From positions 1-44,830 of the forward strand of contig CAIMLU010000004.1 of NCBI GenBank assembly GCA_903842365.1: a DNA stretch of 44,830 bases. The letters run 5' to 3'. Positions 5,802 through 9,072 of this stretch are shown here, piece after piece. The notes below the pieces were generated by a model. The model ran no database searches and was not told where the DNA came from. It saw only the letters and a program-made list of their open reading frames with translations. This DNA comes from an uncultured bacterium. GTDB lineage: Bacteria; Patescibacteriota; Minisyncoccia; Phycocordibacterales; UBA6065. Within the stretch, counting starts at the first letter, position 1. Every line of letters starts with the position of its first letter. Both the position numbers and the translations under genes were made by a program.

Positions 5802-5838
5802 CAAAAAAACTCTATACCCTATAGAGTTTTTTTGTTAC
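5798..5838. terminator. bidirectional terminator (perfect 19-bp inverted repeat spanning both stop codons)
   Basis: GTAACAAAAAAACTCTATA-CCC-TATAGAGTTTTTTTGTTAC between convergent genes. Confidence 0.85.
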
Positions 5839-6824
5839 TGAAATGGGTTTCGGGCACCACGCACTTCAAAGTGGAGATGAGGTCCTGTTGATTTTCCTGT
5901 ATTTCCAAGAGCACCAATCAGATCGCCTTGATTTACAACATTACCCACAGTAACCCCAACCACACTCATGTGACTATAGAGCGTCTGTGTTCCGTTCGGA
6001 TGGCTTATAACAACATATTTTCCATACCCACCGTTATAACCAGAATCACGAGCAACAATAACCGTACCGGCAGCAGCTGCGAGAATAGGGGATCCAATTG
6101 GCACACCCGCAAAATCAATACCATTATACCCGTGGAGACCTTGAGTTTTAACACCTCCAACAAGGGGGCGGCCGTAGTATCCTTCATAATCAGGACCTGA
6201 TCCACCACGATAAGGGTTGGTGTACGTGGATTTTTTTGTTGCGGGAGTAACAATCATCGGCATTTCACCATCAGGGACAACCACTGTTGAGTTAATAACA
6301 AGTGTTGATGATGCAACAATGTCATTGAAACGCATAATATCATCGATATCAGCTTTATACTTCTTTGCAATCGATCCGATAGTATCACCCTTCTTCACGA
6401 TATGACTAATACCCGTAACTGGAAGTATAACAAGTACATCGCCTTCTTTTATTTTTCTACCAACCAAATCATTGGCCCAAGTAATGGTGTTAATTGATAC
6501 TTTAAACATCTTGGCAATATCACCAAGAGAATCGCCTTTGTGTACGGTGTAGACACTAATCGCGGTTGATTTGATATCCTCTACATCGACAATAGTTCCA
6601 ACAACGCCGGCATCTGGCATAAGCGCAACGTCATCAATAATAGAAACATCTGGTGTTTCTATTGCATCGGGGTCTATTGTATGTGCCGCAGCCAAGACGT
6701 GCATTGAACGAACAGAAATAGGTACGCTATCAACCTGAAGAGCCTCATTCGCATGAGGTCCAAATAAGTCAGATATAAAAGAAAACATTCCCGCATGGAC
6801 GACATAGGGGAAAGAAAAAGCCAC
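5835..6824 (-). CDS. LysM x2 + M23 metallopeptidase; true start possibly ATT at 6911
   Basis: YTVHKGDSLGDIA and HIVKKGDTIGSIA LysM repeats; HGYNGID, YSHM, GKSTGPHLHFEV M23 motifs; frame is open upstream to the stop at 6918-6920. Confidence 0.93.
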   Translation of the reverse strand: MAFSFPYVVHAGMFSFISDLFGPHANEALQVDSVPISVRSMHVLAAAHTIDPDAIETPDVSIIDDVALMPDAGVVGTIVDVEDIKSTAISVYTVHKGDSLGDIAKMFKVSINTITWANDLVGRKIKEGDVLVILPVTGISHIVKKGDTIGSIAKKYKADIDDIMRFNDIVASSTLVINSTVVVPDGEMPMIVTPATKKSTYTNPYRGGSGPDYEGYYGRPLVGGVKTQGLHGYNGIDFAGVPIGSPILAAAAGTVIVARDSGYNGGYGKYVVISHPNGTQTLYSHMSVVGVTVGNVVNQGDLIGALGNTGKSTGPHLHFEVRGARNPFQ

Positions 6825-6882
6825 TCCTAACGTAATAAGTGTAAAAAACCTTGCATATGAGCCCTTTTTCGAATATTTAGAA

Positions 6883-7090
6883 GAAGGGGTATGTGGAACG
6901 AGTCCTGTAATATTTTTTTAAGTTACTCTGACCTACTGATTTTCAGACAATATGGCTTTGTTAAGCCATGGAAATATCGGAATATGCCTCAACACCCCTT
7001 CACTATACCTTTTATAGGTCGAGGGTCAACCGCTGCATACCCACCCTTTGTCCACATGCTAAAAAAAGGCTCAATCAAGCCATTATTATA
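6883..7090 (-). promoter_or_regulatory. TATAAT promoter (7085-7090) and structured 5' leader of the M23 gene
   Basis: GAAGGGGUGU/AUACCCCUUC closing helix, AUGGCUU/AAGCCAU and UCUGA/UCAGA hairpins, GAUAUUU/AAAUAUU helix. Confidence 0.5.
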
Positions 7091-7128
7091 CAATTTGATG
7101 GTGAGGGCTGGGGTGGTATAGTTGTCCC

Positions 7129-9072
7129 GTGCATTATCTTGAAACACTCAACCAAAAACAACGCGAAGCGGTAGAAGCAACTGAAGGACCACTCCTCATC
7201 CTTGCCGGAGCGGGAGCGGGAAAGACAAAAACACTTACCCACAGGATGCTCCACTTGATTCACAAAGGAGTAACACCTGGAAAAATACTTGCAATTACTT
7301 TTACCAACAAAGCTGCTAAAGAAATGCGGGAACGTGTTGGATTACTCATTGAACAAGACCCTTCTCTCAACCTACCCATCTCGTTTGACGAGCGACCATT
7401 CGTCTCAACTTTTCATTCACTAGGTGTCCATATTATACGATCGGAAGCACAAACACTTGGACTACCACGTATGTTTTCAATTTTTGATCGAAGTGATAGC
7501 AAACGCGCGATCAAAGAAGCTCTCGAACAACTTGGATACGATACCAAGGAGTTTGAACCAAACGTTGTTCTTTCAATCATATCGAAGGAAAAAGGACTAG
7601 GAGTAACCCACACAGAATACGGACAGCAGGCCGCAACGAGTTTTATGAGCGACCTTATTAAAAATGTCTGGAGGCTCTATGAAGAACGTCTCAAAAAGGA
7701 AAAAGCGCTTGATTTTGACGACTTACTTCTTAAGACGCTCAAGCTGCTTACTGAAAATACACAGGCACGGGAACGATGGCAAAATACATGGGACTACGTC
7801 CACGTTGATGAATATCAAGACACAAACAAAGTACAGTACCTCATCATGCGAGCACTTGTTGGAGATAGGAATAATATTTGTGTTGTGGGTGATGTTGATC
7901 AAAACATCTACAGTTGGCGTGGCGCGGATATTAAAAATATCCTAAATTTTGAACGTGATTTTCCAAAATCACAAATGATTCTTCTCGAAGAAAACTATCG
8001 TTCATCGAAAACAATCCTCGATGCAGCAAACGCAATCATCAAGAAAAACAAAAATCGATTTGATAAAAATTTATTCACCCAAAAAGGTGTAGGGGAGAAG
8101 ATAGCAGAATATGAAGCTTATGATGGCTCTGATGAGGCACGTTTTGTTGCTGATGAAATAAAAAAACTTGTCGATTCAGGGACAAGACCCGAGGAAATTG
8201 CAGTACTCTACCGCGCCAATTTCCAATCACGAGCAATTGAAGAAGCGTTCCTTGAACGAAATGTTCCCTACCAAGTTCTTGGCACCAAGTTCTTTGATCG
8301 AAAGGAGGTAAAAGATACATTGTCGTTCCTGAGAGCTGCAATGAACCCTGATTCACTTTCTGACATATCACGTGTCATCAACGTACCACCCCGTGGTATT
8401 GGTAAAGCAACCATTGCAAAAATATTTTCAGGGAGCGGTGAGACCCTCACCGGCACAACTGCAAAAAAATGGGAGGATTTCAAACGAATGCTCGAGGTAA
8501 TTAAAACCTCTGCTGAAACTGAAAAACCGTCTGATGTCCTGAAAAAAATTATTGAAATTACAGGCCTTGAAAAAGCATTCCTTGAATCTGGAACCGAAGA
8601 AGATGTCGAACGAGTAGGAAACATGAAAGAACTTGTGACCCTTGCGACCAAGTACGATGCATTACCACTTCTGACAGGTATTGAAAAGCTTCTCGAGGAT
8701 GCGTCGCTCCATAGCGATCAAGACGATTTAGAAGAGACACAACAAGCAACGCGCATGATGACCGTCCACTCTTCGAAAGGACTCGAGTTTGACGCAGTGT
8801 TTATTGTTGGCCTCGAACAAGACCTCTTCCCACACAAACCGATGGATAGAGATGCAAAACGAGACAATGAAGAAGAGAGGCGATTGTTTTACGTCGCAGT
8901 CACACGAGCACGAAAGAAACTGTACCTTTGTCATGCAAGTGTCCGAACTATCTATGGGTCACGTGAATTTACCGCGCCATCAGAATTTCTCTTTGACGTC
9001 CCACCAGACCTGATTCACAAAGAAGAGCGGGTTGAAACAGGAAGGGGGAGGGTTATTTATTTAGAGCTCTAA
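7129..9072 (+). CDS. pcrA: UvrD/PcrA ATP-dependent DNA helicase
   Basis: AGAGAGKT, AITFTNKAA, VDEYQDTN, LEENYRS, MTVHSSKGLEF, EERRLFYVAVTRA; TGgTATAGT 6 nt before GTG (leaderless). Confidence 0.96.
   Translation: MHYLETLNQKQREAVEATEGPLLILAGAGAGKTKTLTHRMLHLIHKGVTPGKILAITFTNKAAKEMRERVGLLIEQDPSLNLPISFDERPFVSTFHSLGVHIIRSEAQTLGLPRMFSIFDRSDSKRAIKEALEQLGYDTKEFEPNVVLSIISKEKGLGVTHTEYGQQAATSFMSDLIKNVWRLYEERLKKEKALDFDDLLLKTLKLLTENTQARERWQNTWDYVHVDEYQDTNKVQYLIMRALVGDRNNICVVGDVDQNIYSWRGADIKNILNFERDFPKSQMILLEENYRSSKTILDAANAIIKKNKNRFDKNLFTQKGVGEKIAEYEAYDGSDEARFVADEIKKLVDSGTRPEEIAVLYRANFQSRAIEEAFLERNVPYQVLGTKFFDRKEVKDTLSFLRAAMNPDSLSDISRVINVPPRGIGKATIAKIFSGSGETLTGTTAKKWEDFKRMLEVIKTSAETEKPSDVLKKIIEITGLEKAFLESGTEEDVERVGNMKELVTLATKYDALPLLTGIEKLLEDASLHSDQDDLEETQQATRMMTVHSSKGLEFDAVFIVGLEQDLFPHKPMDRDAKRDNEEERRLFYVAVTRARKKLYLCHASVRTIYGSREFTAPSEFLFDVPPDLIHKEERVETGRGRVIYLEL

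Follow-up and report, generated by a model that had tools for sequence, protein, structure and literature searches.

Two questions are raised by this locus: at which codon does translation of its M23/LysM peptidase gene begin, and what does the leader in front of that gene do? The window (the whole 44,830-nt stretch of DNA analyzed here) belongs to a genome of 0.81 Mb and 41.6% G+C in 66 contigs, and the closest named records carrying the peptidase gene are Parcubacteria/Paceibacterota genomes assembled from metagenomes. The peptidase gene (minus strand) and a PcrA/UvrD-type helicase gene (plus strand, from 7129) are divergent, with the leader between them. A mechanical ORF listing gives the peptidase ORF as 5835..6824 on the minus strand with a GTG start at 6824-6822, leaving 11 residues (MAFSFPYVVHA) before an Ala-x-Ala-like site, VHA/G. 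An earlier note on this DNA judged that start to be too short for a signal peptide, named an ATT at 6911 as the probable start, and proposed that the ATT is hidden within a riboswitch- or attenuator-like RNA of several stems. As set out below, comparison across loci bears out the start codon and leaves the multi-stem RNA without support.

The assignment of the gene product is based on Pfam, which finds a Peptidase_M23 domain (PF01551; E 4e-28, 97.8 bits versus a curated cut-off of 28.7) and two LysM domains (PF01476; E 1e-21, 76.8 bits versus a curated cut-off of 20.9). The H-x-H residues H345/H347 of the peptidase are invariant in 18 orthologs, and peptidase orthologs are present in 41 of 41 related genomes. 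Upstream of the GTG, the frame stays open for 31 codons on the minus strand, up to a TAA at 6920-6918, with no ATG, GTG, or TTG and with an ATT at 6911-6909, just as had been described. The features that bear on the start are as follows.

5835..6911, minus strand: M23/LysM peptidase gene read from the AUU, 358 codons plus the stop at 5837-5835 (Pfam)
6909..6911, minus strand: AUU initiation codon, inferred from conservation, frame, and codon-position bias
6918..6920, minus strand: in-frame TAA, two codons before the AUU, beyond which no start can lie
6792..6911, minus strand: N-terminal 40-residue tail and hydrophobic helix, ending in VHA before G (translation; protein alignment)
6822..6824, minus strand: GTG called by the ORF listing, inside the conserved hydrophobic helix; rejected as start

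By eye, the N-terminus reads KYSKKGSYAR, then FFTLITLGVAFSFPYVV, then VHA/G, a signal-peptide-like pattern. The hydrophobic helix and the A-G-x-F-S site are conserved in a protein alignment of orthologs, and the helix is, by this inspection, a candidate signal peptide or signal anchor.

To compare starts, 30 loci from a related-genome search were examined, and a cleavage motif could be recognised in 46 of 80 further loci taken from named records. Forty-five leaders were aligned with MAFFT, blind to reading frame. The alignment contains one column of invariant A followed by a column of near-invariant U, and the codon beginning at that A is ATT in 36 leaders, ATA in 6, ATC in 2, and ACA in 1. 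It is in frame with the peptidase ORF in 42 of the 45, the exceptions (L059, L063, and L066) being poorly aligned there. The distance from this AUH codon (AUU, AUA, or AUC) to the A-G-x-F-S cleavage site takes 15 different values between 36 and 63 codons, all of them in frame. No in-frame stop lies between the two in 42 of 42 loci, compared with ~2-3 in each of the other two frames. Both the ATT, as AUH, and the N-terminal extension, for which the earlier note had suggested a conservation check, are retained in these loci. The nearest in-frame stop upstream of AUH is 1-53 codons away (at most 3 codons in 8 of 42), and in 9 of 42 loci, the window among them, no ATG, GTG, or TTG precedes the membrane helix. 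Some orthologs have an in-frame ATG or GTG near AUH, and alternative starts are possible in these.

Substitution patterns delimit the coding region more closely. Among nine close pairs, substitutions after AUH fall 37/27/63 on codon positions 1/2/3 (chi-square ~16, p ~3e-4), and those in the membrane helix region fall 42/14/69. The same pairs give a flat 27/38/36 in the 39 nt before AUH. Because the codon-position bias is present after AUH and absent before it, coding begins at or very near AUH, and the true start of the peptidase gene is, with high probability, the in-frame ATT. It is scarcely credible that translation instead begins at GTG 6824 or ATG 6788, with the upstream open frame arising by chance and the protein lacking a signal peptide. 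The GTG is the first canonical start codon in frame, and an AGGAG directly precedes it; however, the AGGAG abuts the GTG without spacing, the organism has no anti-Shine-Dalgarno (anti-SD) sequence (see below), the hydrophobic helix that surrounds the GTG is conserved at the protein level, and the frame, stop-codon, and codon-position evidence carries coding up to AUH. Mechanical ORF calling thus places the start inside the peptidase gene with the loss of the signal/anchor helix, which would mislead a prediction of localisation.

What is transcribed ahead of the AUU depends on the promoter, for which the following features were found.

7002..7029, minus strand: promoter P1, TTGACC, 16 nt, TATAGT, sigma-70-type, with 10 of 12 consensus positions matched
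6993..6997, minus strand: likely transcript start, inferred at ~7 nt after the -10 box of P1
7048..7056, minus strand: TGTGGACAA, a 9-mer resembling a DnaA box, shortly before the -35 box

A TTGAC(N) / TA...T promoter is present at the place of P1 in 44 of 45 leaders, and its -10 box ends 29-39 nt before the hairpin that we refer to as hairpin-1 (listed below). A motif similar to TGTGGACAA was found by regular expression in 23 of the 45; the 9-mer at 7048-7056 looks like a DnaA box. A second promoter, which would act leaderless before the AUU with a conserved UAA ~16 nt upstream as its -10 box, was set aside because the key last-position T is present, by eye, in about half of the leaders and because leaderless initiation is, to our knowledge, not known to use AUU.

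The position of P1 matters for the multi-stem fold, for which the following helices had been named.

7001-6992 with 6892-6883, minus strand: closing helix, GAAGGGGUGU with AUACCCCUUC, 10 bp, window-specific
6947-6943 with 6931-6927, minus strand: UCUGA with UCAGA
6978-6972 with 6915-6909, minus strand: GAUAUUU with AAAUAUU, the supposed ATT-sequestering helix

All of the helices in the earlier proposal, these and the AUGGCUU/AAGCCAU hairpin treated below, are present on the minus strand, as is the GGCUU/GAGCC hairpin (7081-7068) with its U-run just after a TATAAT (7090-7085). Taken alone, the fold in the window is only marginally better than chance. A 136-nt core (6875-7010) reaches -33 kcal/mol with a z of -2.3, and 2 of 200 shuffles fold as well; the opposite strand of this core folds equally well. 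A 291-nt region gives a folding z of -0.76, and the RNA from the predicted transcript start (6996) gives a z of -0.5, with the closing helix lost and two local hairpins kept.

Comparison with other loci is unfavorable to the two helices on which the multi-stem proposal turns. The closing helix is strong in the window (-21.7 kcal/mol, z -2.5), but when the first 28 leader bases are paired with the 36 bases after the start in 44 orthologs, the mean z is +0.19 and z falls below -2 in 3 of 44, the window included, so the helix is not conserved. Its 5' arm begins right after the -10 box of P1, and most of the arm (7001-6992) is thus probably not transcribed. Its 3' arm overlaps the 5' arm of hairpin-2, a conserved coding-region hairpin that pairs downstream. 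Conservation is likewise lacking for the ATT-sequestering helix, which is weak and scores -2.59 kcal/mol for arms of the same locus versus -2.46 between loci (permutation 0.29). RNAalifold applied to the 45 leaders returned 0 consensus pairs and no multi-stem fold, and a position-anchored scan for covarying column pairs found none beyond hairpin-1.

Database comparison points the same way. An Rfam scan, as the earlier note had suggested, matched no relevant family in the window, the leader, or 17 orthologous loci. That no consensus elements of ydaO, the c-di-AMP riboswitch, had been recognised agrees with this result: the ydaO model gave no match at gathering score in the window, none at E<=10 in 6700-7200, and none at E<=1 in the 17 loci. 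The lysM-TM7, lysM-Actino, lysM-Prevotella, and M23 RNA motifs, which we take to be families of Rfam 15, were also absent from the scans of the window, the leader, and the 17 loci. These four motifs are among the systems closest to the element described here. In the available text of Weinberg et al. 2017 (PMC5737381), they are candidate 5' UTR cis elements of lysM or M23 genes, with no ligand or mechanism assigned to them; unlike them, the present element takes in the start codon, extends to a hairpin in the coding region, and occurs in Parcubacteria-type genomes. The same text notes that the ydaO riboswitch is often found upstream of cell-wall hydrolase genes (PMC5737381), but no comparable multi-helix consensus fold is seen in the leader here.

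A ligand-responsive, riboswitch- or attenuator-like RNA, closed by GAAGGGGUGU/AUACCCCUUC and hiding the AUU in a helix, is accordingly very improbable. The strength of the closing helix in the window, the folding z of -2.3 for the 136-nt core, and the candidate leader RNAs reported upstream of lysM and M23 genes in other phyla (PMC5737381, as far as its available text goes) speak in its favor. They are outweighed by the poor conservation of the closing and sequestering helices, the empty RNAalifold consensus, the absence of further covarying columns in the position-anchored scan, the conserved promoter P1 that cuts into the 5' arm of the closing helix, and the lack of an Rfam match, ydaO included. 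The loci compared show no conserved aptamer of several helices in which stems covary and junction nucleotides are conserved, and nothing points to an aptamer that would bind a ligand. Of the suggestion that the region holds a possibly undescribed cis-regulatory RNA, what survives is a conserved leader element without an Rfam family; the multi-stem fold does not.

One of the inner hairpins that had been named, AUGGCUU/AAGCCAU, is conserved across leaders and forms the upstream half of this element.

6952..6969, minus strand: hairpin-1, AUGGCUU-AACA-AAGCCAU (AUGGCUU 6969-6963, AAGCCAU 6958-6952), in the 5' UTR; core of model R1
6912..6951, minus strand: A-rich spacer of 40 nt from hairpin-1 to the AUU, predicted to be little structured
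7061..7083, minus strand: upstream copy of the hairpin-1 repeat, AUGGCUU-GAUU-GAGCCUU plus a U-run, terminator-like, upstream of P1

Hairpin-1 (AUGGCUY-N4-RAGCCAU) is paired in 92% of cells across the 45 leaders, and its first base lies 54-63 nt, mostly 58-60 nt, from the start codon. The folding z of the spacer averages +0.28. Since the hairpin hardly varies, its covariation is not significant (74-111 of 500 shuffles reach the observed values in the 45 leaders). As an intrinsic terminator or attenuator, hairpin-1 finds no backing, being followed by AUAUUGUCUGAAAA and receiving no call in a terminator scan of the leader region, which called only the upstream copy at 7081-7068.

Outside the peptidase leader, some genomes have one or two further copies of the 18-nt repeat ATGGCTY-N4-RAGCCAT (C52:33423-33440; loci L112-L121). 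These extra copies are mostly flanked by A- and T-runs in the manner of two-way terminators and sometimes stand directly before a -35 box. In the genome studied here, a copy is found between adk and map on contig C52, where, by eye on translations, two adenylate-kinase-like ORFs lie in tandem between secY and map (C52:32106-33404); the stems of this genome's other terminator-like hairpins are unrelated to that of the repeat. Some loci (L007, L008, L011, L014, L016, L020, and others) have a second copy of AUAUGGCUUAAC, the 5' half of hairpin-1, in the coding region ~60-75 nt after the AUU. This coding-region copy belongs to one genus and is in another frame in L010; downstream of it, where the membrane helix begins, lies a covarying hairpin (GCUUUAC-N3-GUAAAGC and variants). 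We considered and rejected a +1 frameshift at the out-of-frame AUG GCU UAA of this copy, as the AUG or the stop is missing in some members (L005 and L015).

The absence of significant covariation in hairpin-1 means that the repeat could act as DNA, and this is the main rival to a role in RNA. The AUU start would hold, and hairpin-1 would serve in double-stranded form as an ATGGCT-N6-AGCCAT operator for a dimeric regulator, flanking P1 together with the inverted copy at 7083-7066 to control transcription. The nearly invariant arms would suit an operator, as would the inverted second copy that stands upstream of the promoter in ~16 of 76 loci (289-372 nt upstream of the cleavage site) and the occurrence of the same repeat beside the -35 boxes of further promoters (before map on C52, and in G027 and G029). 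However, where only one side of an outer pair has changed, the RNA of the gene strand can in most cases still pair (G-U or U-G in 12 cells versus 6 unpaired). At other sites, A- and T-runs border the copies as in two-way terminators, a function exerted in RNA. Most loci lack the upstream copy, and the spacing of the two copies, which varies from 117 to 127 bp, is not in helical phase. We regard a DNA operator as unlikely. An invertible promoter between the inverted-repeat copies was rejected because P1 faces the gene in 45 of 45 leaders and the upstream copy is missing in most.

The first bases of hairpin-1 allow another reading, in which the AUG in its 5' arm (in the window, AUG GCU UAA) is the loading site for ribosomes, a mini-ORF is translated, and re-initiation follows at the AUU ~48 nt downstream. 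The first three bases of the hairpin are AUG in 37 leaders, GUG in 5, and other triplets in 3; upstream of them comes an A-rich tract, with a U at -1, as is usual for starts in this genome. According to the available text of PMC2268962, re-initiation does take place in E. coli, where high IF3 lowers it and it falls with intercistronic distance. That last property counts against re-initiation at the AUU, as do the burial of the AUG in a stable stem and the mini-ORF itself, whose length and stop are unconserved (it has 2 or 3 codons or continues, either in frame or out of it). Such a route to the AUU is quite improbable.

The preferred role of hairpin-1, as the upstream border of a start region, has its counterpart on the other side of the AUU in a hairpin that the earlier note did not list.

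6862..6888, minus strand: hairpin-2, CCCUUCUUC (6888-6880) with GAAAAAGGG (6870-6862), beginning 23 nt after the A of the AUU

In the window, hairpin-2 is present in both the MFE and the centroid folds. Its position was examined across loci in MFE folds of 60 nt from offset +10, the A of the start being 0. In 27 of 41 leaders, the first stem begins at offset 19-23, and in the remaining 14 of 41 it does not; the corresponding figures are 220 of 1638 (13%) for shuffled windows and 35 of 205 for interior coding windows, and because the leader loci are related to one another, binomial figures drawn from these counts overstate independence. Outside the window's own family, 14 of 25 loci still start the stem at offset 19-23. 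Mean pairing probability is low (~0.35-0.57) between about -34 and +21, rises abruptly to 0.73-0.76 over +22..+29, and peaks again for the partner arm at +46..+57.

The stems of hairpin-2 differ completely between families. Even so, the 5' arm pairs better with its own partner (-10.5 kcal/mol) than with the partners of other loci (-6.85 kcal/mol), a mean that 0 of 5000 permutations reach, a figure that the relatedness of the loci likewise inflates. From locus to locus the stem is displaced by 1-2 nt in register, and in L007 and L014, which are short-tail variants, pairing at the fixed position is poor. With -7.9 kcal/mol and rank 9 of 41, the hairpin-2 of the window itself is a modest one. By these sequence comparisons, the arms of hairpin-2 co-vary and its position is conserved.

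How far does this arrangement extend? A covariance model, R1, built from hairpin-1 through the start codon, has sense-strand matches in 53 of 100 M23 loci, of which 40 were seeds. In 151 evenly sampled genomes of the order, it matches 49, nearly always once per genome, and in all 10 matched genomes with a known gene position, the match lies directly upstream of the peptidase gene. At E<=0.001, R1 found no match in 8 gene-carrying genomes (G025-G028, G031, G034, G035, and G038). For 260 other ORFs of the genome, mean pairing dips only slightly at the start and does not peak near +22. As judged from predicted pairing, the bracket of two hairpins around the start is specific to the peptidase gene. 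Taken together, the comparisons indicate a conserved, putatively cis-acting leader element that is specific to the hydrolase gene and matches no Rfam family. In the available text of the literature found on CPR/Parcubacteria start codons, or on AUU starts and peptidoglycan hydrolases, the element is not described.

The setting in which such an element would operate is unusual. The 3' tail of the 16S rRNA (contig C41, locus L122:1-418) reads GGAAUAUUUCAAAG where the Rfam consensus is GGAUcACCUCCUUu, with no CCUCC core; the 16S rRNA of this organism has no anti-SD sequence. Anti-SD loss has already been published for a Parcubacteria subgroup, with no mechanism noted in the available text (PMC9297842), and our search found no paper with both 'Patescibacteria' and 'anti-Shine-Dalgarno'. 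No SD-like k-mers are enriched upstream of the genome's starts. The 16S tail was considered as a new anti-SD and set aside, its complement not being among the k-mers enriched before starts. Across the genome, -10-like boxes peak 6-11 nt before ATG, which, together with the lack of SD-like enrichment, suggests that many of its mRNAs are leaderless. The divergent helicase gene may be such a case, its GTG at 7129 lying 6 nt after a TATAGT (ending at 7122; region 7095-7131). IF3 is encoded in the genome. The start of its gene, infC (contig C13, locus L111), is itself ambiguous, as the frame opens right after a TAA, with a TTG at codon 15 as the first canonical start codon and an ATT at codon 20.

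With no anti-SD sequence and many genes apparently leaderless, we propose that a single-stranded window positions the ribosome at the AUU. The peptidase gene would be transcribed from P1 (7029-7002) with a leader of ~85 nt, and translation would begin at the near-cognate AUU at 6911-6909, giving a protein with the 40-residue N-terminal tail and signal/anchor helix that is lost from the GTG. The AUU sits in a ~63-nt stretch that is predicted to be unstructured, between hairpin-1, which ends ~40 nt upstream, and hairpin-2, which begins ~21-23 nt downstream. A 30S subunit protects roughly -35 to +19. A single-stranded stretch of about this footprint size, with the hairpins as its borders, would place the ribosome on a weak start codon, and the expected outcome would be low, IF3-sensitive translation of a potentially lytic enzyme, that is, its rationing. 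An AUU start with two positionally conserved hairpins and structure-guided weak initiation is the best overall explanation that we can offer, and we hold to it with slightly better than even confidence.

The two hairpins could also be unrelated to the choice of start. The AUU would then hold and set low expression, and the hairpins would serve mRNA stability, processing, or a pacing of elongation related to secretion. Stem-loops at the 5' end commonly stabilise bacterial mRNAs, and our data give fixed positions and no mechanism, both of which fit this account. Across many families, however, both hairpins keep closely to their distances from the start, even though the hairpin-2 stems are unrelated to one another. 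This goes beyond the needs of a stability element, and we think such a purely ancillary role rather unlikely.

Structure-guided initiation at the AUU shares features with several known systems. In genes without a Shine-Dalgarno sequence, the start is recognised through a local lack of mRNA structure. The AUU in its unstructured window conforms to this principle, in a lineage for which anti-SD loss is on record (PMC9297842, available text), but the sharp hairpin borders and the non-AUG codon go beyond it, other genes of the genome having only a shallow dip. The AUU-initiated genes under IF3 discrimination, of which E. coli infC is an example and pcnB is reportedly another, resemble this gene in a conserved near-cognate start (AUU/AUA/AUC here), which IF3 is expected to disfavor, and in a low output tied to initiation fidelity. 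They differ in that the gene at this locus encodes a cell-wall hydrolase, no anti-SD is available, and the start is bracketed by two hairpins; an effect of IF3 here would be by analogy with them. High IF3 inhibits non-canonical starts, according to the available text of PMC2268962.

The downstream hairpin has its nearest likeness in eukaryotes, where coding-region hairpins such as the dengue capsid hairpin (cHP) act by position and not by sequence at a short fixed distance past a weak start. A downstream hairpin is reportedly also the subject of work by Kozak in 1990 on start-codon choice in eukaryotic scanning. The available text of PMC6765113 describes how such a hairpin fixes the choice of start for scanning ribosomes. 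These hairpins rely on 40S subunits that scan from the cap, and the parallel is only an analogy. We know of no established bacterial precedent for start selection by a downstream hairpin, nor of anything established in bacteria that is comparable to eukaryotic scanning in this respect.

A bolder form of the proposal is that, in anti-SD-less Parcubacteria, the start may be specified by structure alone, with the two hairpins (ending near -41 and starting near +22) holding the ribosome over the AUU. We consider this possible and, at present, doubtful. If true, it would be a bacterial counterpart of downstream-hairpin start-codon selection, here rationing a lytic cell-wall enzyme. How start codons are chosen in anti-SD-less Parcubacteria is the question on which this compact, conserved, and gene-specific arrangement bears. 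The leader further contributes a candidate cis-acting element, without an Rfam entry, to the few orphan motifs known from leaders of peptidoglycan hydrolase genes.
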